From positions 32,001-96,000 of the IMG/VR virus record IMGVR_UViG_3300021400_000020: a DNA stretch of 64,000 nt. One strand, 5' to 3'. This DNA comes from a virus. A program made the position numbers and the translations under genes. Of this stretch, positions 4,892-40,453 are shown piece after piece. Each line of letters opens with the position of its first letter. Within the stretch, counting starts at the first letter, position 1. The notes below the pieces were generated by a model. That model was not told the DNA's origin. It made no database searches and was given only the letters and a program-made list of their open reading frames with translations.

Positions 4892-4920
4892 CCACCGTGC
4901 CCGAAAGTTCTGCTTTCGGG
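4892..4920 (+). repeat. A-type hairpin (CCACCGTG CCCGAAAG ttctg CTTTCGGG)
   Basis: Starts 1 nt after the stop codon at 4891. Confidence 0.9.
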
Positions 4921-4922
4921 AT

Positions 4923-4959
4923 TCCCATTCATCAACCCCATCAACCCCATTTTCCCATG
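4923..4959 (+). repeat. AACCCCAT leader repeats running into the ATG at 4957
   Basis: TCCCATTCATCAACCCCATCAACCCCATTTTCCCATG. Confidence 0.8.
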
Positions 4960-5121
4960 ATTCTACTACTTATCATCGGCTCCCTCGTCTCAGCCATTAT
5001 CGACATCCTCTTGAAGAGACGTAACGGCTTCACGACCGAAGAGCAAGCCCTGCTCCAGTCGAACAGCATCAACGAGGACGAACTCCGAGAACTCCGCAAG
5101 AACCTCTCCAACTTCAGGTAA
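4957..5121 (+). CDS. small membrane protein (54 aa)
   Basis: MILLLIIGSLVSAIIDILL... starts right after AACCCCAT repeats. The longer track ORF 4684..5121 overlaps the previous gene. Confidence 0.55.
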   Translation: MILLLIIGSLVSAIIDILLKRRNGFTTEEQALLQSNSINEDELRELRKNLSNFR

Positions 5122-5125
5122 TCCA

Positions 5126-5191
5126 CCACCGTTCCCGAAAGTTCTGCTTTCGGGTATTGTCCTTCTCAGTACCCGAAAGTTCCGCTTTCGG
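5126..5191 (+). repeat. A + B hairpin pair
   Basis: CCACCGTTCCCGAAAGTTCTGCTTTCGGG, then CCTTCTCAGTACCCGAAAGTTCCGCTTTCGG. Confidence 0.9.
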
Positions 5192-5227
5192 TTCCCCATC
5201 AACCCCATTAACCCCATCAACCCCATG
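5192..5227 (+). repeat. Four CCCCAT units (C4 runs spaced 5 nt apart) running into the ATG at 5225
   Basis: TTCCCCATCAACCCCATTAACCCCATCAACCCCATG. Confidence 0.85.
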
Positions 5228-5521
5228 CTTACACTCAACGATATCCGCAAACTGCAAGGTCCAGACTCCGACATCGAATGGACTTGCACCTCCATCAGCG
5301 AGGAACTGTCAGAGACATGCAGGAACTTCTTCACCCTGCCCATCCTCCTCACACTCTTTTTCAAGTTCGAAGTAGAGTGGGAGGGACACCTGCTCGAAAT
5401 GCAGCAGAACGCATCCAACGTAAAGCTGCGACTCGACAACCGAACTGCCACCATCCCCGTCAACACCCGTGGCTACGTCACCTCCTCCGACTACGCTCAA
5501 GCATTTGCCTCCCTTGTCTAA
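5225..5521 (+). CDS. hypothetical protein (98 aa)
   Basis: ATG directly preceded by four CCCCAT units. Confidence 0.65.
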   Translation: MLTLNDIRKLQGPDSDIEWTCTSISEELSETCRNFFTLPILLTLFFKFEVEWEGHLLEMQQNASNVKLRLDNRTATIPVNTRGYVTSSDYAQAFASLV

Positions 5522-5553
5522 TTCCGTTGTTTCCCTGCAATCCTTTTTCTCTC

Positions 5554-5619
5554 GCCACCGTCCCCGAAAGTTTCGCTTTCGGTCTTTGATTTCTCAGTAC
5601 CCGAAAGTTTTGCTTTCGG
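5554..5619 (+). repeat. A + B hairpin pair in the convergent gap
   Basis: GCCACCGTCCCCGAAAGTTTCGCTTTCGG, then TTTCTCAGTACCCGAAAGTTTTGCTTTCGG. Confidence 0.9.
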
Positions 5620-5622
5620 CAC

Positions 5623-5668
5623 AAAAGCGAGGAAGTGACAACAACCGTTGCCACTTCCCTGCTTTTTC
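5623..5668. terminator. Bidirectional intrinsic terminator between convergent genes
   Basis: GGAAGTG/CACTTCC stem plus inner CAAC/GTTG stem. Flanked by AAAA on the 5' side and TTTTT on the 3' side. Confidence 0.65.
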
Positions 5669-5679
5669 GTGTTTGTCAA

Positions 5680-8600
5680 CTATCCTCTACCTCTGCGTTG
5701 CATGAACCTTTCAGCCTTCTTCATCCGCTGACGAACTCCATTGTCGCCATACATGTCCACGTGGGCATCAATGCCAGCTTCCAACTGTGCATGAAGGGCT
5801 TTGAGCATCGCGGTATTCGCGGCAATCAAAGACTGCATACCTTCCATGCTGTCACCACCATCGTCCACCGCTGCACCCGCATCGGTCGTTGTGCCAATCT
5901 CGTCAAGATTGCCATCCGCATAAGTGGCAACACCTCGTTGCTTCCTCCGCTTCGGATAGTTAGGAATGACACCCGTCTTACTGAGCACTTGAATGTTGTC
6001 CCAGATTTCAGGGTAGTTCAGAACCAGCTTCTGCGTCGTTGGTCCATCAATCACGGCTTCAGGCATCTTCTCTGAGAAGATACCATAATGCGCACCACCT
6101 CGGTAAATCTTCGTCTGTAGCTTGTCCTCGCGCTTAGCCATGTAAGTCTCACCATCTGCACCCAACACAGGATAACGACCTTCAGCATAGGTGAGGAAAC
6201 CTGCTTTCAACTGTCCCGAACTGGCTCCCGTGGCAGCGGCTACCTCGCTCTTGCTCTTATTGATAGCACCTAAAGCGAGTCCTAACAGCGAACTCAAAGC
6301 AAGACTGATGGCAGCACCGATGGCGAGACCCAGCCAGCCTTTCTTGGCAACTTCTTGCGATGTTCCTTTTATGCCACCAACGGCTGCTTCTGCCGTGCTC
6401 GTACTGCCTTCCACTTCCAGCTCGGCAATCTTCTTAGCACCGTAGTCCGCTAAGCTCTTTTGACGAAGGGCTTGTATCTGCGTTTGCTTCTGCGCTTCAA
6501 GTTGCACCTCCATCTGGTCCACCGTGCGCTTGGTGCTGACTTGTATCAGATACTGCTGAACCAAGTTCTTGGTCGTCGTCAACACGTCGGTCAACAACTG
6601 CTTGGCGGCATTCTGGCGGTCTTCCTTGCTACCAAATACACCCTCGCCGAAACTCTGGGCAAAACTGCTCATCTCATTGCTGTATTCCTGCAAGGTGTCG
6701 AAGTCTCGTGCTGCACGCTCCACCATCTTCTGCATATACTTCTCTTGCAAATCGGTCATGGCAGTGTAGCTGTCACTCAGAGCGATATTCTGCTCCTCCT
6801 GCAACTCCCTCACCGACATCTGCAAGCTGGCGCGACGTGCCTCTAACGACTGAATCTCGTTCTCGGCTGCCTTGCGCTCTTCGTCGGACATAGAACTGCT
6901 GCGACGGGCATAGTCCAACTCCTTGGCGGCAAGACGGGCAGTCGTCTCGGCTTCCTGAGCCTTCATGTTCTCGATGTGCTTGTCTGTCTCCTGCTGCAAG
7001 AGGGCGATATAGGCTTTCTTGGCTTCCATCTGAGCATAAATCACGTCTATCTCAGCATTGGCGGAAACCAACTCACCACCAAAGCCCCAACTGCTGGCAT
7101 AGTTCGCGGCAGTCTGCCCCGACTGGCTTCTGCGCTCTCGGTCTTCGGCTAACTCGCTCTGAGTCCTGCCACCAAGTCCCTCTTCCCTGCGACCTGTCCA
7201 AATCTTGTCAGCCACACGGGTGTACTCCTTGGCTGCCTTGCGCTCGGCATCGATGATGTCGTCGGAATACTGCTGGAGCTTCTGAAGAAAGGCGGTCAAC
7301 TCGGCATCGGCATTGTCTCCTAAGCCCTCAAACCACACGTGGTAGATATTATCCTCCTTGCGCATGGCTTCTTTCAGCTGCTCGATGGTCAGGGAATAGG
7401 CATCCCTCGCCCATGTCTGCAACTGCGCCAGACGCTTCTCGGCTAATGCCTTCGTGCGCTCCTCGGCTTCTTCGTTGATACCGAAGATAAAACCGATGGT
7501 GTCCATCGACCGACGAAACTCTTCACGCACCTTGCCGGTGAAGTCACCCTCAAGAAGTATCTTCTCGATGGCATCCTTGTGCTTGTGAATAATCTCCTGT
7601 ATCTTGGTAGCATCCTCCTGCATCTTACGGGTGGCTCCGTCATACTCACTGCGCACATCATACATGAACTTCTGAATCAGGCTCCAATTCGCCTTTCTCA
7701 ACTTCAGTTCATTGTTCCAGTGCTCCACAAACTGCTTGCTCTCCGTGGCGTTGAGCTGCTTCGTCCACTGCTTTCTCAACTTCATCCTGTCAGCCAACCA
7801 GACAAGTTCATTCTCGTTGTTCCTGCGCTCGGCTTCCTCCTCGGTAATGGATTCCTCGGCTAACCGCTGCTTGATAAGGGCTTCACGCTCCTGGTAGTAG
7901 GCATCCAACTGCGCGAGAGTGGCATCACGCTCGTCTTTTGCCTCACGCTTCCATTTGTCCTTGTCACGATCGCTATTCTTGTCACTCTTATAGTTGCCTT
8001 GAATTGTGTCGTGGCGACGGTCAAGCTCTGCCTTCACCTTGTCATACTCTTCCTTCACACTTCTCTGAGCATCCTCCATGCTCATACTGTCATCAAGCAC
8101 TCCCTTCTTCACGAGGTCGGCATAAATCTTGCTGAATTGCTGCCCCACTTTCAAGCCGTTCTCAACCACGCTGTCCAGATAATCAGCATAGTTCTTCAAG
8201 GTCTCGGTATCCATTTTGTCAAGGGTGGTACCATTCTTTCCCCATACATTCGGATGGGCAATGTCCTCCCACTGATTACGTACCTGTCCTTGCAGATAGC
8301 GGTTGTTGTTCTCCACACGCTGAAGCACCTGACCGCTCATCCGTGGACCTGCCTGATGAGCAAGGTTCTGATAGTCGGCTGAGAGTTCAACGAGACGCTG
8401 GGCTAACTGCTGACGTTCTTTCTTGTCGGTACTGCCATTGAACTGCTTCTGCAAGTTCTGAATCTCCTTGAGGGTGCTATTCAGCATCTTCAAGGTGTCT
8501 TGGTAGCTACGGGTGACAGCTTCGTCCATCTGAGCACCTGTACTCTCTGCAAGACGCACACGCTCACCACGCTCCTTCACAAGGTCGTTCCACAACTTCT

Positions 8601-11600
8601 TGATGTCGTCGAAATTATCATAGATGGCATCCTTGGCAGTCTTGTTCAGCTTCAAGCCACTCTGCGTAATGAGATATTCCATCATGTTACCTTGACGCAT
8701 GTTCTGAACGCCCCAGTTGTCCTGGCTGTTTTTCAACTCCGACTTAGGAAGGGCATCCACCAGTCGCTGCATCGTCCTACGAAGCGCACTCTCAATGACA
8801 CTCGTATTGCGGTCGCCTACTTCCTCGGTCAACTTGTCGCGCACGCCCGTCCAACGGTTTTCACGAGTCGTTCCATACTTCTCTTCCAACAGCTTTTCAG
8901 CGGCTTCCTGCTTCTTCAGCACGATAGTTTCACGAATCTTGCTGTTCAGGAGGTCACGGGCTTGCGTCTGGTTCTTTAATAGGTTCGTCTCGCTAAGTTG
9001 AAAACCGAGGTAGCTCTGCATCACGCCATTTAAGTCGTTAATCGTCTTCTTCAACTCTCGATGGCTATCTACATTCTGCTCATTGTTCTTGGTGAGCTGG
9101 GAAATACGATCCGAGAGTTGACGACTCTTTGCAATCATCTCGTCCTCCTCCTTGGCGGCGGCAGCGATGGCTTCGTTAAACTCCTTTGTGGCTTCTACTC
9201 CCTTGCGGATGTACTGAATCAACTTAATGATACCATCAAGCACAGCGAATACAATAAAGGTCTTGAGTGCCGACTTCAATCCTTCTATCGCCACCTTGAA
9301 TGTCTGTGCAGCTCCTTGGGCTGCAACCAGCCGCTGCCAGAACTGCTTGAGGGCTCTGCTACCATGTTCCAAGGCTTGACGAAACTTCGTGCCGATATTC
9401 AACTGAAGGGAAATCAACGTAAGAATAAGCGCCTTGATGGTGGATTGCCACGAGACGATACTCTGAGAACCTTTCTGCATCCACGAAAGGAAATTGCCCA
9501 AGCCCTTGATGATACCATTGAAGAAGTCATAGATAACACTGTTGGTAAACAGCTCATTGAAGGCATTTCTCAGTCGGGCAAGACTACCTGCGGCATTATC
9601 CTGCACCTTCGTGAACTCACGCGACATCACACTCACATTGCCCATACCGACGGTGGCACTCTCATAACCCTCACTGGCATACTGCAAGGCATCACCCAAG
9701 GCAGCGGTATTTGTCGCCAGAGAACTGAGCGTCATCGCCAGTCCTGCACTCTGTTTCATGCGTCCTGTACCCACGGCATTCATCACCTCCTGCACCTTAC
9801 CTGCCCTGTCTTCGGCATCCTCAATCTTTTCCAACACGGCAACCAAGGCTTCATAGCTCTTGCCCTCGTCAATCAGACTTTGCAGATAGGTAGGAGCCAG
9901 CTCTGCGGCTTTCGCCATCTCGAAGGTGTGGTTCATCACGCCACGAATCAAGTGTATCAAGGCGGTACTGCCCTGCTCTGCACTGATACCGACGGCATCC
10001 AAACGTCCTCCCAAGGCAATCAGTTGGGGCATGGTCATCTTGGCTGTAGCACCCACTGCGCCAAGTCTTCTCACGTACTCCATGATACCCTGATAGCTGG
10101 CGGCGGTATTGTTACCGAGGTTCAGAATGGAACTACCTGCGGCATCCAAGGCTTCGCCAACATCGTCACCATGTTTTTTCGTCTCACCCAGCACGTCATT
10201 CACCTTTGCCAGTCCTGCAATGGCTTCCGCTCCACCAATATCTTCACCAAGGGTGGCATTGATACGTTCACCCATCTCCACGAAACCCTTCATGCCTTCA
10301 AGCCCATGCTCGGTATAGATACCTAACTTACCTGCTTGCGTGGCAAACTCCATCAGGTCGTGGGTGGTGGTGCGGGTGTCGAGGTCCTGCAAGCTCTTCG
10401 ACAAGCGGCGCACCTCCTCAGTCGTCATGTTCGTTACCTTCTGCACATTCGTCATCTGGTCACTGAGTTCCATGATATGCCCGAACTGCTTGCGTACCTC
10501 GTTCATGATGGCATTGAAGCCCAGATAGACGGCGATATAGCTTTTGAGTCGGTTGATGGCGCCACGAATACCACTTTGATGATGTGTCCAAGTTTCTGTC
10601 AACTCCTTCATCTGCTTGTCAATGGCTTTCATCTGCGCCGCCTTCGCTATATACTCGTCCTGCGTCAGTTCTGTATTGTTGATTTCGAATTTCAGACGCT
10701 TATACGCCATCCTCAATTCGTCGATATTCTTCACACCCTTTGGGTTTTTAAGAATTTCATCAAACCGCTCGGCAGTCAAGGTGGCAGTCTCCTGCAACAT
10801 GTCGAGACGCTGTAACTCGCGCTCAACGGCAATGATTTTTTCTTGTCCGTCCTTGCTCGTCACGTCAAGCGTACTCTTATAGGCACGGAGTCCATTGCGT
10901 AAGCGGTCGAGGTCGGTCAACGTACCCTTGAAGCCATTGCCGCTGTTCACATTCTCCAAGTATTTCTTGGCTTCCAGCACACGGTCATTGGCTTGCTGCA
11001 AGTCGGCAGTCATCTTGCGGATAGTTTCATCAACCCTCGATAAACCTCCCTCATTGGTGGTCTCCAAGTTCTCCCTGTACTGCTGCAAGAGCTTGATATT
11101 CTCCTGAATCTTGGTGGTACTCTGCGACCCCGATGTGTAGTTCATCGCTTGCTGGGCTTTGTCTTCCAACGAGGTCTGCGCACGATGCTGGATGGTGTCG
11201 TTGATGGCTTCCAACTGGTTCTTCACCCGCTCAAGCACCCGCTCTTCCATGTTTCCGGCATCCACCATGCCCTGCAAGAAACGTTGCACATCCGACAACT
11301 GCTTGTCGGTGGCGTTGCCGATGTCGGCAAGGACATTTCCTCCACCTGTCTTCATCCAGTTACTGAACTTAACGCTGTTGATGCGCTTCTCATAAATCGC
11401 CCATTGCGATTGGGTCTTGGCAAGGGTCTGCTGCTCCTGCTTCAGCACCTCAATCACACGCAAATTCGTGGCAACACTGTTGTTGGAGGCGTTCTCGCTG
11501 GTTTGCCAGACAGATTGAAAACCTGCCTTCAGTTCGTTCAAGCGGTTCTTGATGAGCTGCATCACCTCCGACTTACGGGCAAACTCCTCGGCGGAAACGC

Positions 11601-12957: not shown

Positions 12958-12972
12958 GGCTATATATTGTTA

Positions 12973-13000: not shown

Positions 13001-13017
13001 TTCTCACTTTTCCCTTC

Positions 13018-13619: not shown

Positions 13620-13649
13620 TTTCTCCGTATGCGAAAGTTCCGCTTTCGC
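13620..13649 (+). repeat. B-type element (TTTCTCCGTA + hairpin GCGAAAG/CTTTCGC)
   Basis: Read directly from the sequence. Confidence 0.8.
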
Positions 13650-13654
13650 CTTTC

Positions 13655-13681
13655 ATCCTCCCCCGAAAGTTCTGCTTTCGG
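13655..13681 (+). repeat. A-like hairpin lacking the CCACCGT flank
   Basis: CCGAAAG ttctg CTTTCGG. Confidence 0.7.
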
Positions 13682-13688
13682 TCCTTAG

Positions 13689-13718
13689 TTTCTCCGTATC
13701 TGAAAGCTCTGCTTTCAG
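13689..13718 (+). repeat. B-type element with covarying stem (CTGAAAG/CTTTCAG)
   Basis: TTTCTCCGTAT CTGAAAG ctctg CTTTCAG. Confidence 0.8.
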
Positions 13719-13866: not shown

Positions 13867-13940
13867 ACCACCGTCCACGAAAGTTCCTGCCACCGTTCCC
13901 GAAAGTTCCTGCCACCGTTCCCGAAAGTTCCGCTTTCGGG
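13867..13940 (+). repeat. 22-nt tandem array of A-type 5' half-sites (three units); only the last unit completes the hairpin
   Basis: ACCACCGTCCACGAAAGTTCCT / GCCACCGTTCCCGAAAGTTCCT / GCCACCGTTCCCGAAAGTTCCGCTTTCGGG. Confidence 0.85.
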
Positions 13941-13982: not shown

Positions 13983-14012
13983 TTTCTCCGTACCCGAAAG
14001 TTCCGCTTTCGG
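13983..14012 (+). repeat. B-type element (TTTCTCCGTA + CCGAAAG/CTTTCGG hairpin)
   Basis: Read directly from the sequence. Confidence 0.8.
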
Positions 14013-16460: not shown

Positions 16461-18227
16461 TTATTTGCTCTCCGTTGATACAACCCCCGTCTTGCTGTTG
16501 TCCAGCGTCGTGAGGTTCTGCTGTTCTATCACCCATTTCAAGTGCTTGTCACAGTCATTGAAGGTGGAAATCATGTCCAAGAGCCATAGGTAACGACGCT
16601 GACTTGGACTCACCTGCTGCTCCTTCAGCAAATGCAACTCACGCTGGAACGTGCCTCCCTTACCAGAACTACCAGGACGTGAGCCGATCAGTTCGGGATG
16701 AACACCCATTGCAAAGAAGATGATACTGCTCACTTCCTCCAACTCGGCTTTTAAGTCCTTGGCGTTCTGAGGTTGTGGCACATCTACAATCTCAATCGAC
16801 TTCACGAGCGTCTTCTCATCTTGGCTCAGATAGGCATCCAATGCAACGGTCTTACCGTTATTGTCGCGCTTCTTCAGGAATTGGTTGATGTCGTTAATCA
16901 GACCCGTCTTGATAGCATCCTGCTCGTCCTCGTTCGTCGCTCCCATCTGGTCGTAGAGTTTCTGAAGGTAGTTGAGATTGATGTAGATGATTTTTCCCCA
17001 CATCGTAGAGTTGTTCCTCGCCGCTGCCTTGTCGAACATCATTGTATAGGCATAGTTATACACATAGCTCAGGAAGATACTCCACCACATAGGCTGTGGA
17101 TAGTAAGGGCGGAGTATGTTCGCACGTTTCAGAGGGATGCAGAACCATGCCGTGCGCTCATTCACCTTCTGACGTTGTTGACGCGATACCCACGAATTCA
17201 ATTCTTCAATGGCACTGTCGGAATTGATGACAGGGTAGGCGATGACCTCGCCAAATTGCAAGTCGGGAGTGCATTCCTTGCGCCAACGCTCGGCATAGAA
17301 GACATTCTCAATCTTCAAGTCCTTGCTCATCTCCTCGTAACGGGTGCAGACACAAGGCAGAAAACCGAGTTTCACAATCTTAGGATTCCACTTGCCGCTC
17401 TTACCTCGCGACAAGCCAATCGTAGGAAAGGCGATGTTCATGTGGGCATCGTCAGTACAATACTTCTCATAATGCTCACAGAGATTGTTGTTCTCAAGGA
17501 ACTCACGAAGCCATTGACTTGTGCTTTCCCATTTTTCATAGTCTTTGACAAGCTGATCGATTTCCTTGTCAAGGTACTCTTTGAGACGAGTATGCTTGCC
17601 ACCCTTACGCGGACCTTCCTCGCCACCGTTCCCGAAAATTTGGTTTTCGGGTAAAAGGTTACCGTTCCCGAAGGTTCTGCCTTCGGATTCCCCGTTCACC
17701 CCATCATCCTGCGACTCATCATCATCCAAGGCATCTCGTCGTGAAGATAACTCTATAAGTCTATTCAGAATCAGCGTACCAGCAAGAGGGTAGGGGATGC
17801 TCTCTTCCTTGACCGTCCCTCCAGCGTATCGTGCCCATACGTAAGTGGGTTTGGGACCATGCCCTTGCGTGAGGTTGATGATGTATTCCATAGCAGCAGC
17901 AGTGTAGGGGAGGGCTGCCACTAACTGCGCAATCCTGTTCGGCTGGTCGTTGGCACTGCCCCAGGCGATATACTTGCCTTTGACGGTCTTGCTATCCACA
18001 CTGATTGCCTGTATTTGCTTACCGTCGGGAATGAGGTTGCTGCCCGTACCAAGCATCGACTTGTTCGCCCATTCCGCGCAGCCACTCACCACCGAAGGGT
18101 CGTTATTCTTGCTGTTGCCAAACCCTGTCACCGTGATGGGAATATAACCACGTTTCTGCAAGCTCTGAATCTTGCTGAAGGCTTTATCAACGGTTTTTTT
18201 AAACTGATTCTTCTGATTCTTTGCCAT
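16461..18227 (-). CDS. portal-like protein (588 aa)
   Basis: Size and position fit a portal. C-terminal region ...YPQPMWWSIF...AMGVHPELIGSRPGSSGKGGTFQRELHLLKEQQVSPSQRRY... resembles portal stem/tunnel regions as I recall them. Not verified by search. Confidence 0.6.
   Translation of the reverse strand: MAKNQKNQFKKTVDKAFSKIQSLQKRGYIPITVTGFGNSKNNDPSVVSGCAEWANKSMLGTGSNLIPDGKQIQAISVDSKTVKGKYIAWGSANDQPNRIAQLVAALPYTAAAMEYIINLTQGHGPKPTYVWARYAGGTVKEESIPYPLAGTLILNRLIELSSRRDALDDDESQDDGVNGESEGRTFGNGNLLPENQIFGNGGEEGPRKGGKHTRLKEYLDKEIDQLVKDYEKWESTSQWLREFLENNNLCEHYEKYCTDDAHMNIAFPTIGLSRGKSGKWNPKIVKLGFLPCVCTRYEEMSKDLKIENVFYAERWRKECTPDLQFGEVIAYPVINSDSAIEELNSWVSRQQRQKVNERTAWFCIPLKRANILRPYYPQPMWWSIFLSYVYNYAYTMMFDKAAARNNSTMWGKIIYINLNYLQKLYDQMGATNEDEQDAIKTGLINDINQFLKKRDNNGKTVALDAYLSQDEKTLVKSIEIVDVPQPQNAKDLKAELEEVSSIIFFAMGVHPELIGSRPGSSGKGGTFQRELHLLKEQQVSPSQRRYLWLLDMISTFNDCDKHLKWVIEQQNLTTLDNSKTGVVSTESK
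17623..17651 (+). repeat. A-type hairpin inside the portal ORF (stem CCCGAAAA/TTTTCGGG, compensatory change)
   Basis: CCACCGTT CCCGAAAA tttgg TTTTCGGG. Translated in frame as ...NQIFGNGG... Confidence 0.85.
17659..17686 (+). repeat. A-type hairpin inside the portal ORF (stem CCGAAGG/CCTTCGG, compensatory change)
   Basis: TTACCGTTC CCGAAGG ttctg CCTTCGG. Translated in frame as ...EGRTFGNG... Confidence 0.85.
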
Positions 18228-18308: not shown

Positions 18309-18349
18309 GCCACCGTCCCTGCCACCGTCCCCGAAAGTTCCGCTTTCGG
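18309..18349 (+). repeat. A-type element with duplicated GCCACCGTCCC flank
   Basis: GCCACCGTCCCT GCCACCGTCCCCGAAAGTTCCGCTTTCGG. Confidence 0.8.
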
Positions 18350-18456
18350 TTTCCAGTTTCTCCGTATGCAGCGGTTTTGCCGCTGCCCCTTCCCCTGTTC
18401 CGCTTTCGGCTTTCAGTTTCTCCGTATGCAGCGGTTTTACCGCTGTCCCTTCCTCC
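18337..18456 (+). repeat. 60-nt direct repeat, two copies, each ending in a B-type element with stem GCAGCGG/CCGCTGC
   Basis: GTTCCGCTTTCGG(T/C)TT(C/T)CAGTTTCTCCGTATGCAGCGGTTTT(G/A)CCGCTG(C/T)CCCTTCC. Copies start at 18337 and 18397. Confidence 0.85.
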
Positions 18457-23543: not shown

Positions 23544-23611
23544 CCACCGTTCCCGAAAGTTCTGCTTTCGGGTTCAGAAAAAACCACCGTTCCCGAAAGT
23601 TCTGCTTTCGG
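23544..23611 (+). repeat. Two A-type hairpins in tandem (40-nt period)
   Basis: AAACCACCGTTCCCGAAAGTTCTGCTTTCGG occurs twice (23544-23572 and 23584-23611). Confidence 0.9.
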
Positions 23612-23632
23612 TCATCAGAAAGAAAGAAATCT

Positions 23633-25521: not shown

Positions 25522-25661
25522 CCACCGTCCCCCGAAATTTTGTTTCGGGTTTCAAAAGCCACCGTTCTCAAAAGTTTCGCTTTCAGGTTCCCCTCTCCAC
25601 CGTCCCCGAAAGTTCTGCTTTCAGTCCTTCGTTTCTCCGTACCTCTCGGCTCAGCCGAGAG
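25522..25661 (+). repeat. Composite cassette: three A-type hairpins plus one B-type hairpin (stem CTCTCGG/CCGAGAG)
   Basis: A at 25522-25549, 25558-25587 (degenerate) and 25597-25624. B at 25632-25661. Confidence 0.85.
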
Positions 25662-27364: not shown

Positions 27365-27480
27365 GCCACCGTTCCTGCCACCGTTCCCAAAAGTTTCGCT
27401 TTCGGGTTCCCCTCTCCACCGTCCCTGAAACTTCTGCTTTCAGTCCTTCGTTTCTCCGTACCTCTCGGCTCAGCCGAGAG
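27365..27480 (+). repeat. Composite cassette (A, A, B), about 90 percent identical to 25558-25661
   Basis: A at 27365-27406 (duplicated flank) and 27416-27443 (stem CTGAAA/TTTCAG). B at 27451-27480. Confidence 0.85.
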
Positions 27481-28066: not shown

Positions 28067-28094
28067 CCACCGTCCCCGAAAGTTCCGCTTTCGG
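28067..28094 (+). repeat. A-type hairpin
   Basis: CCACCGTCCCCGAAAGTTCCGCTTTCGG. Confidence 0.85.
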
Positions 28095-28113
28095 TCAAAA
28101 CAACCCATCAACA

Positions 28114-28759: not shown

Positions 28760-28824
28760 CCACCGTTCCTGAAAGTTCTGCTTTCAGTCTTTCGTTTCTC
28801 CGTACCTCTCGGCTCAGCCGAGAG
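28760..28824 (+). repeat. A + B cassette
   Basis: CCACCGTTCCTGAAAGTTCTGCTTTCAG then TTTCTCCGTACCTCTCGGCTCAGCCGAGAG. Confidence 0.85.
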
Positions 28825-31484: not shown

Positions 31485-31487
31485 GTT

Positions 31488-31694: not shown

Positions 31695-31700
31695 TCAATC

Positions 31701-32419: not shown

Positions 32420-32486
32420 ACGAGTTTCACGGATGGCACGAAAATCCTTTCCGTAGGATATAAAAAAAACAAAGCATTGAATTTGA

Positions 32487-32515
32487 TTAACCCCATTAAA
32501 CCCATAAACCCCATG
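32487..32515 (+). repeat. AACCCCAT leader running into the ATG at 32513
   Basis: TTAACCCCATTAAACCCATAAACCCCATG. Confidence 0.75.
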
Positions 32516-32938: not shown

Positions 32939-32950
32939 AACTAATCAATC

Positions 32951-33842: not shown

Positions 33843-33855
33843 TCCAAGAACTCCG

Positions 33856-34077
33856 ATGATATATATCTATAGAACTCTTTGGGCGATATTCTATATCCCC
33901 ATCTTCCTGATGGAATGCGTGGCATTCGTAATAGGCTGTCTTTCTTACCCATTTATTGCTTTTGTTTACTATGTCAAGCATGGCTCAACCATAGGTCTGA
34001 AATGGGCAGGTGACACAATAGCATTTTGGATCGAGAAAAAATATCAGAACCTAAGAACATACATCGAAACATTATGA
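33856..34077 (+). CDS. small membrane protein (73 aa)
   Basis: Two hydrophobic helices. Stop overlaps the next start (ATGA). Confidence 0.6.
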   Translation: MIYIYRTLWAIFYIPIFLMECVAFVIGCLSYPFIAFVYYVKHGSTIGLKWAGDTIAFWIEKKYQNLRTYIETL

Positions 34078-34961
34078 AAATCCTATCAAAAACCAAAGGC
34101 AATGCAGAAGAGTACGGACGATGGAGCGTAAACCCCTACATCGGCTGCTCAAACGGTTGCACATATTGCTACTTGAAGTCGGGACCATCAGGCAAATACC
34201 TCGGACAGAACAAACCCGTACTGAAGAAGGGAATCATTGATGACGAACATGCCTTCTATCTCGCTATGGCGGAAATCCTCGAAAACCGCAAACAAATCCA
34301 TAAGGATGGTGGTGTGTTTATGAGTTTTGTGACTGACCCTATGCTTGAAGAATGTCAGCGTTTGTCCTATCGCATAGCAGCAGAATGTGTGAAATATGAA
34401 ATACCTGTCACATTCCTAACGAAACGCCTTGCCTATTATCTTGACTCAGCAATCGAAGAATATCAAAACCTCTGGAAACTCGATAATACGCTTGTCGCTT
34501 ATGGCTTCACGTTGACAGGACACGACGAGCTGGAACCCAATGCACACGACAATCGCGCAAGGATAGCTACGATGCGTGCATTGCGCCGTGCTACATACTT
34601 TCACGTTTGGGCGTCAATAGAACCCATCATCGACTTCCCATCCTCCTTCCGTATGATCCAGCAAGCACTCGATGCAGGGTGTGAGCATTTCAAAATTGGT
34701 TTGATGACCAAGAACACAAAAGTATGTCGTGACAAGTACGACGTATCAGAATGCCTTTCCTTTATTCAGGACGTGATGGTAGCGACAAAAGACAAAGCAA
34801 CGGTCTATTGGAAGCAATCAGTCCGTGACTTCATCGGAGGTACACCAACCCATCGCCGTTTCTCCGACAAAGAACTACACAAAATTCTCGACGACTACCC
34901 TCACGCCGTCAGCAAGAACTGGAGCATCTTCACACAAAGTAACCTCCATACAGAGGATTGA
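34074..34961 (+). CDS. radical SAM protein (SplB/DNA-photolyase-like family by N-terminal motif)
   Basis: NPYIGCSNGCTYCY is a CX3CX2C motif in the NPYxGCxxxCxYC context I associate with COG1533-type radical SAM enzymes. Confidence 0.7.
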   Translation: MKILSKTKGNAEEYGRWSVNPYIGCSNGCTYCYLKSGPSGKYLGQNKPVLKKGIIDDEHAFYLAMAEILENRKQIHKDGGVFMSFVTDPMLEECQRLSYRIAAECVKYEIPVTFLTKRLAYYLDSAIEEYQNLWKLDNTLVAYGFTLTGHDELEPNAHDNRARIATMRALRRATYFHVWASIEPIIDFPSSFRMIQQALDAGCEHFKIGLMTKNTKVCRDKYDVSECLSFIQDVMVATKDKATVYWKQSVRDFIGGTPTHRRFSDKELHKILDDYPHAVSKNWSIFTQSNLHTED

Positions 34962-35077
34962 AAAAGAAATAATTTTATAAAGAGCCATACGGGGGCTGTG
35001 CGTGACAGTCCGCTAACAGTATAATCTGCCAGACACAGGTGCAACTCCTGTAGCCCTCGTTTAATATCAAAAAAACT

Positions 35078-35368
35078 ATGAACGAAAAGATTTATGCAGT
35101 ACCTAACCCAATGTGGTTATCGGACACTTTTGTGTTTCGCAAGCATGAAGACAAGAAACTTGGTACAGTTTACATAAAGCTGAACCACGAAAACAAAATA
35201 GAGGAAGTCGGCATTAATATTGAAGATAGGATGCACAACACACCTCTGGAAAGTATTCTGACAGAGAAGAGTTGTCAAGAGGCTAACGAACTTCAGAAAA
35301 CAATCCTCAATAGTATCGGTGATGAGTATTGGTATGGAGTTCTGAATCGTAAAAGGAGATTCTCTTGA
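35078..35368 (+). CDS. hypothetical protein (96 aa)
   Basis: ATG ORF. Confidence 0.6.
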   Translation: MNEKIYAVPNPMWLSDTFVFRKHEDKKLGTVYIKLNHENKIEEVGINIEDRMHNTPLESILTEKSCQEANELQKTILNSIGDEYWYGVLNRKRRFS

Positions 35369-35416
35369 TAAAGATAACATCAAACATCCGAACAATCAAC
35401 CAACGAATAGAGGACT

Positions 35417-35845
35417 ATGACAGAGAAAGAACGAAAGGCAAGAATAATGAATGGAGCCAGTAATTATATGACTGGAAGGGCGATGGCACTCTCCTTTAAA
35501 CCGCTTTCATTACAAGATGTGAAGGATGCTTATATAAGCGGAGCTTACGACATGGAACAACTGATCGACTCATCGATGTGGTGGAAGATTGCAGACGACG
35601 AACTACCCAAGATAAACAGAGAAGTGATAGTTCTTACGTCTGACGGGACATTAGCATACGCTCATCGTCCACAAGAATCATTTAAGGGGAGGACTATTGC
35701 TTCAGGCATAGATGAAATAATCACCCCTACACGATACGGAAGAGGACAATGGAATATCCCCAACGTCCTATTCTGGCTCGACATCGAAATTCCTGACATC
35801 AAAGACTACTTGGAGAGAACAAAACAATCCTTCCAAATCCTTTAA
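35417..35845 (+). CDS. hypothetical protein (142 aa), possibly DUF551-like
   Basis: WWKIADDELPKINREVIVLTSDG resembles the DUF551 pattern. Weak call. Confidence 0.6.
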   Translation: MTEKERKARIMNGASNYMTGRAMALSFKPLSLQDVKDAYISGAYDMEQLIDSSMWWKIADDELPKINREVIVLTSDGTLAYAHRPQESFKGRTIASGIDEIITPTRYGRGQWNIPNVLFWLDIEIPDIKDYLERTKQSFQIL

Positions 35846-35880
35846 ATCCCTGATAAAATTAAATCCCAGATTAAGACAAT
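35828..35880 (+). repeat. C-family repeat (TCCTTCCAAATCCTTTAAATCCCTGATAAAATTAAATCCCAGATTAAGACAAT)
   Basis: Near-identical copy at 36972..37026. Confidence 0.85.
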
Positions 35881-35993
35881 AGCAGCATTGGAACAGTGCG
35901 CAACTTCTGCGAAGCTAACCATACAGACACGCTCATTATAACAGGCGAAGGAGACAAGGTGCTTTTCGAAGCAATACTAAAAGACAAGGAATC

Positions 35994-36236
35994 ATGACTA
36001 AAAGACAAAGAAATAATTTGAACAGATTGCGAGAATTGGTTGCTGATTTTCAGCCATACATTCCTTATGTGCATGATAGCACTGTTATAGAGATATTCAA
36101 TTATATTGGGACTGTGCTGTATGGCGTTCTTGTAGATTGTCCTGAAAATGAAGAGTTAGAGTATAATCTTGAACAAATAGAAAAATCTCTACAAGAGTTT
36201 GAGAAATTATTAAAACATGAAAAAAGCATTGGATAA
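35994..36236 (+). CDS. hypothetical protein (80 aa)
   Basis: ATG ORF. Confidence 0.55.
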   Translation: MTKRQRNNLNRLRELVADFQPYIPYVHDSTVIEIFNYIGTVLYGVLVDCPENEELEYNLEQIEKSLQEFEKLLKHEKSIG

Positions 36237-36324
36237 ATGGTATGAGTGTTTTCGACTCTGTTTTAAAAAGTGATAAGGGCTTTGAGTGGAAATTAAACAA
36301 TTTAAACTATAGATAGAACGTGTT

Positions 36325-36903
36325 ATGGATTTAATAAAATGTAAATGTATAAGAACTGCAAGGGTAAATGGATTAACATTTGTTCCTGATGAAGTTTACT
36401 ACCTCGAAGAGCAGGTATTTACTAAGGAATATAAACCTGCCATACATCCTCAGCCTGCTCGTGGTTATCTCATCCGCTACAAACGCTATAAGGTCGCATT
36501 ACCAACAGAGGAACCACTGTTAGAAGACGATGATGATTTGTACCGTATGGTAAATGTACGAATAGCATATTTCTACGACCGCTCTTACTGCGAGCACCAC
36601 GATTGGAAAGATGAACGAGGATGTGATACAGAATGCTTTGAGGACCATTTCGTTACCATTAGGCCCACTCAAGATAGCGTTGTGCCTAAGTTTAAGAGCA
36701 AACTCTATACAAAACCATTGACAAGAAAGTTAAATAACATTCCTATGGAATTTGTAAAAGAGGACATCACAGGTTATATGAGACGAAACTGGCAGGAGCA
36801 GATGTATGCAAAGTTCGGCGGCATGAGTCCTGAAGACTGGGATTTCGATACCTTCATGCAAAGAATTGGTGAATACACGATGAATACGAAACAAAATAAA
36901 TAA
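36325..36903 (+). CDS. hypothetical protein (192 aa)
   Basis: ATG ORF. Confidence 0.7.
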   Translation: MDLIKCKCIRTARVNGLTFVPDEVYYLEEQVFTKEYKPAIHPQPARGYLIRYKRYKVALPTEEPLLEDDDDLYRMVNVRIAYFYDRSYCEHHDWKDERGCDTECFEDHFVTIRPTQDSVVPKFKSKLYTKPLTRKLNNIPMEFVKEDITGYMRRNWQEQMYAKFGGMSPEDWDFDTFMQRIGEYTMNTKQNK

Positions 36904-36971
36904 CCTCTACGGAGGAAAGGAGTTGTTTTTAGTGAGGAATTTTTACTTTTTACTTTTTCATTCAAAATCAT

Positions 36972-37026
36972 TCCTTCCAAATCCTTTAAATCCCTGATAA
37001 AATTATAAATCCCAGATTAAGACAAT
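36972..37026 (+). repeat. C-family repeat whose last bases supply the ATG of the next gene
   Basis: ...AAATCCCAGATTAAGACAATG. The other copy reads GACAATA at the same place. Confidence 0.85.
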
Positions 37027-37477
37027 GGCACGAATCCACCGCAATGGCAACATGCTTATCAGACTTGATAGCATCGTAGCAGTATCATCCGACATGGACA
37101 AACCTAAAGAATTGGCGATTTTCACCAACTCACCAGGAATATTCAAAATCCATTTTGAAAAAGACGAGGAAGTAACCAAATACATCGACGACCTGCAAGC
37201 AAGAATCGAGAAGGAACTTCCCGATTCTATAACCATGAGCAAAAAAGAGAAGACCAACAAAGACTTAACAAGTAAAATAATCCGCTCTACTTTCATCCGA
37301 GGAGAGGAGGACGGCAAGAAGGACATGCTGGACGCTGCCTGTGACTACCTCGAAAGCATCGAGATAGACGTGTATTTCAACGCGAACAAAGAGAAGCCAG
37401 ACTTCGACTATGAGCGATTCGTCAATGACTTCCGCACCTCCCTCACCAAAAAACTCCTGTCTCCAAACACTCTTTAA
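37025..37477 (+). CDS. hypothetical protein (150 aa)
   Basis: ATG ORF. Confidence 0.7.
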   Translation: MARIHRNGNMLIRLDSIVAVSSDMDKPKELAIFTNSPGIFKIHFEKDEEVTKYIDDLQARIEKELPDSITMSKKEKTNKDLTSKIIRSTFIRGEEDGKKDMLDAACDYLESIEIDVYFNANKEKPDFDYERFVNDFRTSLTKKLLSPNTL

Positions 37478-37480
37478 AGA

Positions 37481-37717
37481 ATGACCTACCAGGAATACAT
37501 ACAGCGACATATCATTGCAGCTGATTACAAAGAGCAGAATAACCAATGCGAAGCCGTTCCCATGATTTCAAAAGAGAATGCAGAGAAGGCTTGTGAGTTG
37601 GCAGTGTGCAACTTCGCTCAGGACCTACTACCGCTCTGCGAGTCCGCAAGAAAAGAACTATTGAAAAAAGTAATCATCGATTTCAAAACAAAATATGGCA
37701 ACAGAGAAATGCTTTGA
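37481..37717 (+). CDS. hypothetical protein (78 aa)
   Basis: ATG 3 nt after the previous stop. Confidence 0.6.
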   Translation: MTYQEYIQRHIIAADYKEQNNQCEAVPMISKENAEKACELAVCNFAQDLLPLCESARKELLKKVIIDFKTKYGNREML

Positions 37718-38090: not shown

Positions 38091-38159
38091 TCAGTTTTTC
38101 CGAACCAAGTTCCGCTTTCGGTCCTCCCTCTCCACCGTTCCCCGAAATTTTGTTTCGGG
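38091..38159 (+). repeat. B-like plus A-type hairpins
   Basis: ...CCGAACCAAGTTCCGCTTTCGG then CCACCGTTCCCCGAAATTTTGTTTCGGG (stem CCCGAAA/TTTCGGG). Confidence 0.8.
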
Positions 38160-38163
38160 TTTC

Positions 38164-38191
38164 ATCAACCCCATAAACCCATCAACAAATG
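38164..38191 (+). repeat. AACCCCAT leader running into the ATG at 38189
   Basis: ATCAACCCCATAAACCCATCAACAAATG. Confidence 0.7.
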
Positions 38192-38779
38192 TCCTCACCA
38201 AACACCCAAACAACCCAAGACACCCTCATTTCCCGCCCCACATTCAAATACAATATCGGGGATATACTCAAAATAAACAACATTAGTAGTTTTGTTTCTT
38301 CTGACCTAAACAAAGAGTACAACGACAACCTGCAGGTTATTTTCCGATTCTATGATGGAAACAACAATAACGTCTATATAGTGGAATGCGAAGACGGCTT
38401 TGCTTTCACACTCTGTGAGCAAGAAGCAGACTTGGTTAAACATTCCACAGTCCCGAACACACCACCTGACAACAAACCAGTGAATAGCCGTCAACTCGAC
38501 GAGGAAACCTACCAGGCACTGAGACGTTTGGGTGTGCTCGACACATCTGTCCGTTCCTACAACCGAGGCAAAAGCGACTATTCGCGCCACATCATCCAAC
38601 CGTGGAGCATCTGGCAAGAATACAACTTGAACCCGTGGGATGCCGACATCGTGAAGCGCATCCTCCGTACCAAACAAGGGGACAGCCGACGACTCGACTA
38701 CGAGAAAATCATCCACATCTGCGAAGAACGCATCCGACAAATAGAATGCGAAGCAGAGAATCCACAGCATAAGCATTGA
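38189..38779 (+). CDS. DUF3310-like protein (196 aa)
   Basis: C-terminal ...DYSRHIIQPWSIWQEYNLNPWDADIVKRILRTK... matches my recollection of the DUF3310 core. Confidence 0.65.
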   Translation: MSSPNTQTTQDTLISRPTFKYNIGDILKINNISSFVSSDLNKEYNDNLQVIFRFYDGNNNNVYIVECEDGFAFTLCEQEADLVKHSTVPNTPPDNKPVNSRQLDEETYQALRRLGVLDTSVRSYNRGKSDYSRHIIQPWSIWQEYNLNPWDADIVKRILRTKQGDSRRLDYEKIIHICEERIRQIECEAENPQHKH

Positions 38780-38792
38780 TGAATCCATCGGC

Positions 38793-38822
38793 TTTCTCCG
38801 TACCTCTCGGTTCTGCCGAGAG
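38793..38822 (+). repeat. B-type element (stem CTCTCGG/CCGAGAG, loop ttctg) followed by an orphan CAACCCCAT unit
   Basis: TTTCTCCGTACCTCTCGGTTCTGCCGAGAG. Confidence 0.85.
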
Positions 38823-39088
38823 CCTACTCATCAACCCCATAAGAAAGCATTATAGATTTCTTCATAATTCAGTTCGGACTTGTCTGCGAAGATAGGAACG
38901 AACGCCTCGCATAACCCTTGCCATTGAGCAAACAACATATCTCTCAGGCTTACCACAGCCCGCAGAGGGGATAATGGTACTAAACAGGATTCCCCTCCAT
39001 TTCAGAAATCCCTTCAAACCCTAAAAATCACAGACACATACGTCCCCGTGGTGTTTGGCAGCTGGGAAGGGGTAGCAGCCTCGGACTA

Positions 39089-39097
39089 CCCCCCCCC
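39089..39097 (+). repeat. C9 homopolymer, 22 nt upstream of the ATG at 39119
   Basis: ggactaCCCCCCCCCagtttt. Confidence 0.8.
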
Positions 39098-39118
39098 AGT
39101 TTTAATACACAACTTCAC

Positions 39119-39370
39119 ATGGTAATCATCGACGGAAGAAAAATATATGAACAACCTGCGTGCTGCGGACAATGCCCGTTCCTCTTCGACTACTCCACAC
39201 ACATGACCCCAGCCAAAGGACCATTGCCCTGCACACTCTTCAACGAAATGCACAGATACATGACCACCCCTCCACGCCGCTGCCAAAAACTCTTTAAGAA
39301 GGCATTCGAGTATTTCAACGACAGCGGCATCGACCTCTCCATCGTCAAAAACCAAAACAAAGAACAATGA
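39119..39370 (+). CDS. small Cys-rich hypothetical protein (83 aa)
   Basis: ATG ORF. CCGQCP...C. Confidence 0.6.
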   Translation: MVIIDGRKIYEQPACCGQCPFLFDYSTHMTPAKGPLPCTLFNEMHRYMTTPPRRCQKLFKKAFEYFNDSGIDLSIVKNQNKEQ

Positions 39371-39753
39371 AACTCTATATCTCCACACCCATCAACGCAC
39401 GTTCGGAAGCTACCTTCCAAGAGAAGTACGAGACAGCTCGGAAACGTGTGGAAGAAATCAAGGAACAACTGCCATCCATCTACCAGGAATGCTACGACAT
39501 CGTTTCCTCCTTCGACCTGAACCCACTCGGAACCTACACCGAAGCGGAAGCAATGGGAAGATGTATCCAAGCCGTCATGGAGTCCGACGCCATCCTGCTC
39601 GACGATGGTTGGGTGACATCCCAAGGATGCTGTCTTGAATTCCGCACAGCGGAAATCTACAACAAAATCATCTATTCCACCAGCCCCAACAACCCCATCA
39701 ATCCCATGAACCCCATCCTCCCAGATGGATTTCACAACAAATCTTATGTTTAA
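39367..39753 (+). CDS. DUF4406 / nucleoside 2-deoxyribosyltransferase-like protein (128 aa)
   Basis: MKLYISTPIN...SDAILLDDGWVTSQGCCLEFRTAEIY matches the DUF4406 pattern as I recall it. ATGA overlap with the previous gene. Confidence 0.6.
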   Translation: MKLYISTPINARSEATFQEKYETARKRVEEIKEQLPSIYQECYDIVSSFDLNPLGTYTEAEAMGRCIQAVMESDAILLDDGWVTSQGCCLEFRTAEIYNKIIYSTSPNNPINPMNPILPDGFHNKSYV

Positions 39754-39770
39754 TTGACCCCATCCACTAC

Positions 39771-39806
39771 AAAAAAAACGGTCCTTGCCTCACGACAAGA
39801 AACCGT
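39771..39806 (-). terminator. Intrinsic terminator for the (-) lysis operon in the convergent gap
   Basis: Minus-strand reading ACGGTttCTTG tcgtgagg CAAGgACCGT followed by T8. Confidence 0.55.
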
Positions 39807-39838
39807 CCAACGTAATTCAAAAACTAACTAACTTTTAA

Positions 39839-40387
39839 CTAAAATAATCTATAGTACACGCCTACCCCAACAAACGGCTCGGCGTTTTTGTTCTTCATTC
39901 CAAGACCAACACCACCCATCACACCAACACCCCAACGCGGATATTTCTTGATAGTAATTGTCTGTGTGTTGGTAATGATCGTCGTTCGCATCCTCAGTTC
40001 AATGGAGTCCAGCTTTGCATGATAGCCACTGACCCAAGCCCTATATAGACTATCCTCATAGATTGTCTGCTCAATCGGTATCTCCACCTGAACACTGTCC
40101 ATCATCTTATTGGCGTCAATAAGATGGTCGTCTTTCTCAGTAAGTGTCGGTTCTGCCGACACCTTCAGATACCCCACTTCGGTCCTTACCTGCATACTGT
40201 CCGTCGGTACGGGCTCGCGCACCCTCACGGTGTCATGCACCGTCACCGTGTCACTCACCGTCACCGTGTCCCTCGTCTCCTTGAACACAACACTCGGCTC
40301 ATAACAACTGCGCACACAAATCACAGCCAGCACAATCACAGCCAGCACCCCAATCGCACAGAGCTGCATCTTTGCTATATCCTTCAT
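39839..40387 (-). CDS. membrane-anchored lysis-cassette protein (182 aa), spanin-like candidate
   Basis: N-terminal transmembrane segment LCAIGVLAVIVLAVICV. Gly-rich beta-like C-terminus ending YYRLF. Lies directly downstream of the endolysin. Confidence 0.65.
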   Translation of the reverse strand: MKDIAKMQLCAIGVLAVIVLAVICVRSCYEPSVVFKETRDTVTVSDTVTVHDTVRVREPVPTDSMQVRTEVGYLKVSAEPTLTEKDDHLIDANKMMDSVQVEIPIEQTIYEDSLYRAWVSGYHAKLDSIELRMRTTIITNTQTITIKKYPRWGVGVMGGVGLGMKNKNAEPFVGVGVYYRLF

Positions 40388-40403
40388 AACATCTTGCTTT
40401 TAG

Positions 40404-40453
40404 TTACCGTTCCCGAAAGTTCTGCTTTCGGGTAAAAGAAAGTTCCGTTTTCG
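40404..40453 (+). repeat. A-type hairpin plus half-site (TAAAAGAAAGTTCCGTTTTCG)
   Basis: TTACCGTTCCCGAAAGTTCTGCTTTCGG, in (+) polarity although the flanking genes are on (-). Confidence 0.85.

Follow-up and report, generated by a model that had tools for sequence, protein, structure and literature searches.

Co-oriented tagged hairpins in a metagenomic phage genome probably belong to a REP-like repeat family of gut Bacteroidales

The stretch analyzed here, hereafter the window, is 64,000 nt of the IMG/VR virus record IMGVR_UViG_3300021400_000020, and it carries about 25 copies of a short hairpin repeat, named class A. The source genome is a 97,040-bp metagenome scaffold in which the window spans about 10167-74166; including flanks, 82 kb were covered. 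The gene content of the window is phage-like, with a tape-measure gene, a head protease-capsid gene, a C5 methylase, a DarB-like helicase, two giant open reading frames (ORFs) and a reverse transcriptase (RT). The capsid protease has distant relatives in phages of Flavobacterium, Porphyromonas and Cellulophaga, the Bacteroidota promoter consensus TTTG-N17-21-TAnnTTTG has five matches at plausible sites in the window against 1.07 expected, and the start codons are not preceded by Shine-Dalgarno sequences. From these three features, the host is concluded to be a member of Bacteroidota.

Class A consists of a single-stranded tag, (G)CCACCGTYC, followed by an 8-bp stem with a 5-nt loop. The core CCCGAAAGnnnnnCTTTCGGG matched the window 16 times with at most two mismatches, always on the plus strand, where 0.02 matches are expected; the flank CCACCGTYCC matched 25 times with at most one mismatch, 23 times on the plus strand, against 4.6 expected. 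A covariance model (R1), built from 19 aligned class A copies (alignment A1) and run over both strands with filters off, returned 25 class A matches at E<0.03, with E-values reaching 4e-13, all on the plus strand and confined to 4.9-40.4 kb. The original prediction, made from the letters of the window, had claimed about 25 copies, and a copy is indeed present at each coordinate that it listed. Minus-strand matches of R1 were weak echoes whose coordinates coincide with plus-strand palindromes, and this both-strand scan, which had been proposed as a check, found no inverted copy in the window. The claim that every full copy carries a CCACCGT flank on the plus strand holds for the strand in all cases, but the flank departs at 13654, where it is degenerate, and at 17660 and 40404 (TTACCGT). 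Adjacent copies are spaced 8-17 nt apart, the majority of copies are solitary, and ahead of full copies, partial units (tag and 5' arm) occur in phage and bacterial hosts alike.

The stem varies in sequence and keeps its pairing. Among the 19 copies, 89.5% of the stem cells are paired and double changes occur in 5 of the 8 pairs; none of 500 shuffles equaled the covariation score, and the signal was lost when the partner was slid. The four variant stems put forward earlier as compensatory changes are all present, and an orthologous class A copy of a sister strain shows a compensated indel (CCTCGAAA/TTTCGAGG vs CCCGAAAG/TTTTCGGG). Selection on the folded structure, as originally proposed, is thus supported. 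Chance or low-complexity palindromes, in whose favor only the short motif length can be cited, are already refuted by the excess of core matches, the E-values and the shuffles. The predicted folding energies of the two strands are -12.6 and -11.8 kcal/mol as RNA and -8.7 and -8.9 kcal/mol as DNA. With its perfectly palindromic stem, the hairpin folds equally on the two strands; asymmetry is confined to the tag and the loop.

By listing perfect hairpins, we found a sister hairpin, class B, which the original prediction had overlooked. It has the tag TTTCTCCGTAY, a 7-bp stem and a 5-nt loop, and its 13 full copies in the window all lie on the plus strand. Pairing is 100%, with double changes in 6 of the 7 pairs, and the stems are diverse (CCGAAAG, GCGAAAG, CTGAAAG, GCAGCGG, CTCTCGG, GTGTCGG, GTGAAGG). 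Both classes share their loop types (consensus YTYYG) and the layout CCGT-NN-stem, and a unit measures 29-30 nt, with a stem of 7-8 bp; the fourth base of the CGT-containing tag differs, being CGTT in 11, CGTC in 6-7 and CGTG in 1 of the 19 class A copies, and CGTA in class B. By mismatch type (G-U vs A-C), class A leans to folding on the minus strand (4:1) and class B to folding on the plus strand (2:0); as these leanings are opposed, no conclusion on the folding strand was drawn. A-B composites are frequent, and in the plus-strand gene block they are followed by a C-rich leader (CAACCCCAT repeats) and then an ATG. Beyond the window, the right flank holds 5 more A and 6 more B copies, all on the window plus strand, and the same flank from a sister strain holds 6 A and 5 B copies on a single strand.

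Class A also occurs outside the phage. The 26-mer ACCGTYCCCGAAAGTTYYGCTTTCGG, comprising tag and hairpin, was found exactly in at least 113 metagenome loci, many on contigs of 0.2-0.5 Mb; among the matches listed for it, most are one conjugative element with TraG and TraM, in which the copy lies antisense between tra genes. This element with class A copies is very common and belongs to Bacteroidales. With one genome per species, the bare hairpin gave 113 matches, 38 of which carried the tag GCCAC(C/A/T)GTTC, and the tagged matches were essentially all from Bacteroidales (Prevotella, Bacteroidaceae, Phocaeicola, Parabacteroides, Leyella). Host copies in Prevotella and Bacteroidaceae lie in the intervals between the genes ubiE / aroE / purM-like, outer-membrane protein / nadC, and ruvB / coaD, and after a PcfRGLX-like lyase gene; neighboring host copies have other stems (CCCGACGG/CCGTCGGG, CCGAAGT/ACTTCGG). 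Individual metagenome-assembled genomes hold several chromosomal loci, and about 100 kb of copy-seeded loci yielded about 19 further copies. The 34-nt element was present in one uncultured phage record and one Phocaeicola record only. Because class A also resides in host chromosomes and in a common conjugative element, it is not phage-specific, and the earlier suggestion of a phage-specific signal (packaging, replication or a phage protein) is not supported: the same tag and hairpin sit between housekeeping genes and in the conjugative element. We consider it very probable that a REP-like (repetitive extragenic palindromic) family is common to phage and hosts. A literature search found nothing specific on REPs in Bacteroides or Prevotella, and the literal sequence of the element gave unrelated primer matches only. 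In one 6.3-kb human-gut contig (L126), class A lies at 303-328, 2534-2559, 5031-5056 and 5858-5883, each time antisense to a gene run that includes a Toprim-domain (primase-like) protein.

The original prediction held that the polarity is independent of gene direction. This was borne out, and in hosts too the copies follow GC skew, not genes. In all 12 loci with at least two copies, the copies were co-oriented. Relative to the flanking genes, their orientation was the same or opposite depending on the locus, and in both arrangements they lay just past the stop codon of the upstream gene. The tag strand was the C-rich strand in 28 of 29 loci, with a GC skew of -0.01 to -0.12 in co-oriented genes and -0.03 to -0.19 in opposite genes. 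Tagged hairpins were located on the C-rich strand in 35 of 38 cases, compared with 31 of 75 untagged look-alikes with the same stem. After similar loci were collapsed, all 15 independent clusters agreed, 12 of them non-phage. In the source genome, the plus strand has a negative GC skew over 82 kb, in plus- and minus-strand gene blocks alike.

These data bear on the view that the repeats are plain intrinsic terminators or host-type bidirectional 3' hairpins, whose polarity is a by-product of strand composition. The position of both orientations just past stop codons would suit such a role, as would one moron-like unit (promoter match, ORF, A hairpin), and the tag and loop are pyrimidine-rich like the plus strand. 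However, composition cannot keep an 11-nt tag identical in phage, conjugative element and chromosomes, nor can it eliminate inverted copies, and hairpins that share the stem but lack the tag are unbiased as to strand. The copies have no U-tract, and a single one, at 28769, passes the terminator scan, so the statement that they lack a T-run and are not classical terminators was essentially right. Moreover, two copies are placed downstream of a promoter match and upstream of the first gene in an operon. We hold this explanation to be very improbable. Within the window, neither terminator-like sites (16 vs 20 expected) nor sigma-70 promoters were enriched.

The 3' stabilizer that the original prediction had listed among its candidates remains plausible as an RNA role. 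Such a role cannot account for the polarity, since either strand of the palindromic stem folds equally well. Direction resides only in the tag and loop, and the polarity would thus require a factor that is specific for the sequence and recognizes one strand as single-stranded DNA (ssDNA) in step with replication. That an ssDNA, replication-linked process sets the polarity is, in our assessment, somewhat favored.

Next to genes, the copies show a consistent placement. They lie just 3' of ORFs in either orientation, starting 1-34 nt past stop codons in the plus-strand gene block, and at least 8 are antisense to local genes. Two exceptions, at 17623 and 17660, which the original prediction had missed, lie within a 588-aa minus-strand ORF that reads through both in frame, and they encode part of an acidic, glycine-rich stretch, ...GESEGRTFGNGNLLPENQIFGNGGEEG... 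Certain host copies are also inside ORFs. The presence of two in-frame copies of the same polarity in a coding gene is evidence for arrival by insertion. No copy was found in 22 kb of tightly packed structural genes. The block 30000-37500, which has a lower G+C (0.39-0.43), no negative GC skew and no hairpin, may be recently acquired DNA.

As had been suggested, we compared copy positions among related phages, and sister strains 89-98% identical to the window differed in cassettes and in tandem number. A cassette with a 147-aa gene and its own A copy is inserted in sister strains precisely at position 5191, where the B hairpin ends on its 3' side, and the block 4204-4956, which is specific to the window, combines a promoter match with an ORF and an A hairpin. 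Between strains, tandem arrays range from 1 to 2 units for class A and from 1 to 4 units for class B. The copies thus bound accessory-gene cassettes that are gained and lost.

Placement and regular layout invite the explanation that the repeats are a phage-specific RNA element of early transcripts, i.e., a processing, antitermination or stabilizer site that, like boxA-boxB or Cas6 sites, is read by an RNA-binding protein, here one encoded by the phage. The distance to stop codons in the plus-strand block, the regular unit A, B, C-rich leader and ATG, the strong covariation and the detection of class B in the phage lineage only would all be in line with it. Yet class A is also found between bacterial housekeeping genes and in a conjugative element; there are zero inverted copies, though in about half of the region transcription is off the minus strand; and the antisense copies, the two copies in frame within an ORF and the two A copies in a 5' leader do not suit such a role. 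We consider it distinctly improbable.

Improbable as well is a functional DNA signal of the phage replicon, such as lagging-strand priming (ssi-type), Chi- or KOPS-like polar, packaging or partition sites. The strict one-strand polarity over at least 82 kb parallels the uniform GC skew, a ParA gene adjoins one cluster, and a Toprim-domain gene lies among the four copies of L126. Against this, copies are also scattered at unrelated host chromosome loci, and tandem copy number varies freely between strains. Their lack in the 22 kb of structural genes implies that spacing is set by intergenic room and not by a need of replication. Polar motifs such as Chi and KOPS are also not known to be hairpins.

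Taken together, we propose, with a probability of about 60%, that the repeats are a phage-borne population of a REP-like family of tagged palindromic repeats of gut Bacteroidales, with a polarity set at the ssDNA level and a role as RNA hairpins 3' of genes. Among the roles first suggested, a small non-autonomous mobile repeat and a DNA-level polarity fit best. On this proposal, one element would have populated the host chromosomes, the common conjugative element and the phage of about 97 kb, in all of which it is observed. In each replicon, all copies point one way with the tag on the C-rich strand; this pattern could arise by strand-specific spread, as in IS200/IS605 and REP-RAYT, or, as in Ssn/NTS, by cleavage of one strand only, which would purge copies lying in the exposed orientation. 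The copies, which are positioned directly 3' of ORFs, would settle there and form a stable RNA hairpin whichever the transcription direction, most plausibly acting as a 3'-end or intercistronic mRNA stabilizer and insulator and not as a classical terminator. Such a role, suggested by their position, is possible, and we put it forward tentatively. In the phage, copies mark the bounds of cassettes that vary between strains, with tandem units changing in number, as the sister strains show. A bolder and rather unlikely conjecture is that gut Bacteroidales possess an undescribed ssDNA nuclease or transposase that reads the CCGT tag and hairpin on one strand only and forces all copies in chromosomes, conjugative elements and the phage into co-orientation relative to the fork. 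On this conjecture, the roughly 45 co-oriented phage copies may mean that the element colonizes the phage during replication; alternatively, host-type marks in a "safe" orientation may let the phage pass an ssDNA-restriction or horizontal gene transfer control of the Ssn/NTS kind.

Several points weigh against this proposal. Genes for a transposase, HUH, GIY-YIG or integrase protein were sought in the window, in the source-genome flanks and beside host copies, and none was found; in particular, RAYT / Y1 transposases were lacking among the 61 window ORFs and the flanks, and GIY-YIG gave neither a Pfam match nor an ORF with a GIY..YIG motif in the window or in 270 loci. The factor that would set the polarity is hypothetical for this reason. 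The direction of replication is deduced from GC skew only, and since the skew keeps one sign through 82 kb, the phage offers no internal test. Class B was detected solely in the phage lineage, with none seen in the host loci, and part of the family may be a phage innovation with its own function. Finally, the host copy number per genome is extrapolated from 8-kb loci picked for holding a copy.

REP-type repeats are old and widespread, and their mode of spread and function are still debated. The pattern described here points to an ssDNA, replication-coupled factor that can be sought directly. The repeats also offer a marker of replication direction for uncultured phages, a signal of host linkage, as phage repeats match host repeats, and they are seams at which phage strains swap accessory genes.

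The coordinates of the copies and of other features are collected in Table 1. The left flank of the source genome encodes PcfJ, ArdC (ArdcN and MPTase-PolyVal) and the remainder of a 1602-aa methylase-helicase (L274 1-9895), and the right flank encodes ParA and an HU-like (HU-HIG) protein (L270 7478-8877). These flanking genes are of plasmid type, and the phage may be maintained as a plasmid (phage-plasmid). A megablast of 20 kb against known phages gave no match, a search with a 1009-aa protein found no relatives in IMG/VR, and no tRNA or tmRNA was found in the window.

The promoter matches include a divergent pair at 23.4 kb and one within the repeat cluster at 13.6-14.0 kb. C-rich leaders of CAACCCCAT / CATTAACCCCAT repeats lie directly 5' of the ATG of many plus-strand genes without a Shine-Dalgarno sequence. 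On the minus strand, a purine-rich repeat, AAGTGAAAAGTGAAGAGTGAAAAGTG, occurs at 12958-13010 and 16418-16460, 5' of the tape-measure gene and of a 373-aa ORF; read on the plus strand, it is pyrimidine-rich. Two other hairpins were noted: a perfect 13-bp stem with a 7-nt loop at 1490-1522, directly 3' of the DarB-like helicase stop codon, and a conventional hairpin with a T-rich tail at about 5640-5675, between convergent genes. A complete diversity-generating retroelement (DGR) occupies 43250-45411. Its template repeat (TR) and variable repeat (VR) are 125 nt long, and 12 of 12 differences fall at TR adenines. The VR is at the 3' end of ORF 45254-51694 (-), the target being the C-terminus of a 2146-aa protein. 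A hairpin at 45212-45233 (8-bp stem, 6-nt loop) lies just downstream of the VR and has 9-10 bp counterparts at the matching position in related loci. In phages with a 59-68% identical RT, class A was not found at distances of up to 10 kb from the RT; as this region is copy-poor in the window too, the negative carries little weight.

Table 1. Coordinates of hairpin copies, promoter matches, leaders and retroelement parts in the window
Feature	Position	Strand	Remarks
Class A, tag CCACCGTG	4892..4920	+	1 nt past stop of ORF 4445-4891; 3' end of strain-variable cassette 4204-4956
Class A	5126..5154	+	5 nt past stop of small ORF 4957-5121
Class B, CTTCTCAGTA + CCGAAAG/CTTTCGG	5162..5191	+	Strain-specific cassette inserted exactly at 3' end in L104, L275
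Class A	5555..5583	+	Between convergent genes 5225-5521(+), 5680-12957(-)
Class B	5590..5619	+	
Class B, GCGAAAG/CTTTCGC	13620..13649	+	Antisense in 5' leader of minus-strand operon
Class A, degenerate tag	13654..13682	+	
Class B, CTGAAAG/CTTTCAG	13689..13718	+	
Class A tandem	13868..13940	+	Two 22-nt partial units (tag, 5' arm, loop), then full copy 13912-13940
Class A 3' fragment	13947-13963		After full copy 13912-13940
Class B	13983..14012	+	2 nt from stop codon of minus-strand gene 14015-14590
Class A, CCCGAAAA/TTTTCGGG	17623..17651	+	Within 588-aa minus-strand ORF, translated in frame
Class A, tag TTACCGT, CCGAAGG/CCTTCGG	17660..17686	+	Within 588-aa minus-strand ORF, in frame
Class A	18310..18350	+	12-nt partial tag, then full copy 18322-18350; divergent intergenic region
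Class B, GCAGCGG/CCGCTGC	18357..18386	+	Unit 1 of 60-nt tandem; 2 units in window, 3 in L129
Class B, one G-T pair	18417..18446	+	Unit 2 of 60-nt tandem
Class A	23544..23572	+	5' leader: 3' of Bacteroidota-type promoter match 23440-23470, 5' of C5-methylase gene
Class A	23584..23612	+	Second copy in C5-methylase leader
Class A, register-shifted CCCGAAA/TTTCGGG	25522..25550	+	
Class A, degenerate, stem mismatched	25559..25587	+	
Class A of A-B composite	25597..25625	+	
Class B, CTCTCGG/CCGAGAG	25632..25661	+	Then CAACCCCAT-type leader and ATG
Class A	27366..27406	+	12-nt partial tag, then copy 27378-27406; 4 nt past stop of 26973-27362
Class A of A-B composite, CTGAAAC/CTTTCAG	27416..27444	+	
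Class B	27451..27480	+	
Class A	28067..28095	+	
Class A of A-B composite, CTGAAAG/CTTTCAG	28760..28788	+	
Class B	28795..28824	+	
Class A, register-shifted stem	38132..38160	+	
Class B	38793..38822	+	Shortly past stop of 38189-38779
Class B, GTGTCGG/CCGACAC	40133..40162	+	Within predicted minus-strand ORF 39839-40387
Class A, tag TTACCGT	40404..40432	+	Between two minus-strand genes; kept in sister strain (L003/L072)
Class A 3' fragment	40439-40451		After copy 40404..40432
Class B, GTGAAGG/CCTTTAC, one G-T pair	41694..41723	+	At boundary of minus-strand genes
Bacteroidota promoter match	4213-4244	+	
Bacteroidota promoter match	13816-13846	-	
Bacteroidota promoter match	23338-23368	-	
Bacteroidota promoter match	23440-23470	+	
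Bacteroidota promoter match	59659-59688	-	
C-rich leader	3491-3524		
C-rich leader	4921-4956		
C-rich leader	5192-5224		
C-rich leader	25662-25703		
C-rich leader	27481-27520		
C-rich leader	28825-28860		
C-rich leader	38161-38188		
DGR, RT	43250-44743	-	
DGR, TR	about 44528-44652		
DGR, avd-like ORF	44750-45178	-	
DGR, VR	45269-45393		

We compared the element with known systems. Among 4227 Rfam covariance models, none matched the window at the gathering threshold, and none matched 25480-25720 at E<=1. A CRISPR array, whose repeats alternate with unique spacers of about 30 nt, was rejected: here the spacing is 8-17 nt, and the majority of copies stand alone. An integron attC site was ruled out on size and because no integrase was found. 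UG27 RT arrays of noncoding RNA have structured units of about 135-167 nt beside a UG27 RT with two accessory ORFs (bioRxiv 10.64898/2026.09.22.753630). They were rejected too: the units here are 30 nt and dispersed, and the RT is that of a DGR with a TR/VR pair.

As a short (20-40 nt) imperfect palindrome that forms a stem-loop and lies mostly extragenically 3' of ORFs, with two in-frame exceptions, the element resembles a generic REP-like repeat. REPs stabilize the upstream mRNA. Similar to REP/BIME-RAYT and IS200/IS605, which are hairpin-based and act at the ssDNA level, the latter reportedly with insertions oriented relative to the replication fork, it is built on a hairpin; unlike REP/BIME-RAYT, it comes with no Y1/HUH gene that we could find, and enterobacterial REPs occur in both orientations and in inverted pairs. 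In PeSL cassettes of T4-type phages and in phage morons, intergenic stem-loops delimit small accessory genes that related phages shuffle among themselves; these stem-loops are phage-specific and co-oriented with transcription. The unit of promoter match, ORF and hairpin resembles them, whereas the element here is common to host DNA and ignores gene direction.

The closest likeness is to two tagged families. According to Di Nocera et al. 2013 (PMC3733652), CGTC-tagged REPs have an unpaired CGTC tag (TGTC or CCTC allowed), stems of 8-9 bp whose first two pairs are near-invariant A-T, loops of 4-5 nt and a 3-nt CCA tail, form mostly head-to-head dimers, have no dedicated transposase, and occur in five phyla including Bacteroidetes. 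Our element likewise has an unpaired CGT-containing tag that is immediately followed by a stem of about 8 bp closing a 5-nt loop, and is dispersed mostly just downstream of ORFs, with some intragenic copies and no transposase nearby. It differs in that its longer tag, with about 10 conserved nt, mostly has T as the fourth base, the 7-8 bp stem starts with C-G and not A-T, the bases past the stem are variable with no CCA tail, and strict co-orientation prevails, with zero head-to-head dimers or inverted copies.

The Neisseria NTS is, according to Chenal et al. 2025 (PMC11893778), bound and cut as ssDNA only and on the tagged strand only by SsnA, a 94-aa GIY-YIG nuclease (cd10448) whose gene is usually flanked by repeats; the paper does not mention Bacteroidales. 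As in NTS and Ssn-related motifs, there are many copies of an oriented tag with a hairpin, and one-strand reading of ssDNA of the SsnA type is the kind of factor that the polarity here requires. Unlike NTS, no GIY-YIG ORF was found in the window or loci, and the SRM motif HGTCWYN(0-2)YYVSBRHN(0-5)WNVSBRGN(0-2)RNCYNB had 0 matches on either strand of the window. The element may work like the CGTC-REP and NTS families, but it is not a member of either as defined, because its stem starts with C-G, and CCA tails, inverted dimers and SRM matches are lacking. As far as read, PMC3733652 and PMC11893778 report no replication-strand polarity; here, one tagged-hairpin family keeps a strict DNA-strand orientation in a phage, a conjugative element and host chromosomes.

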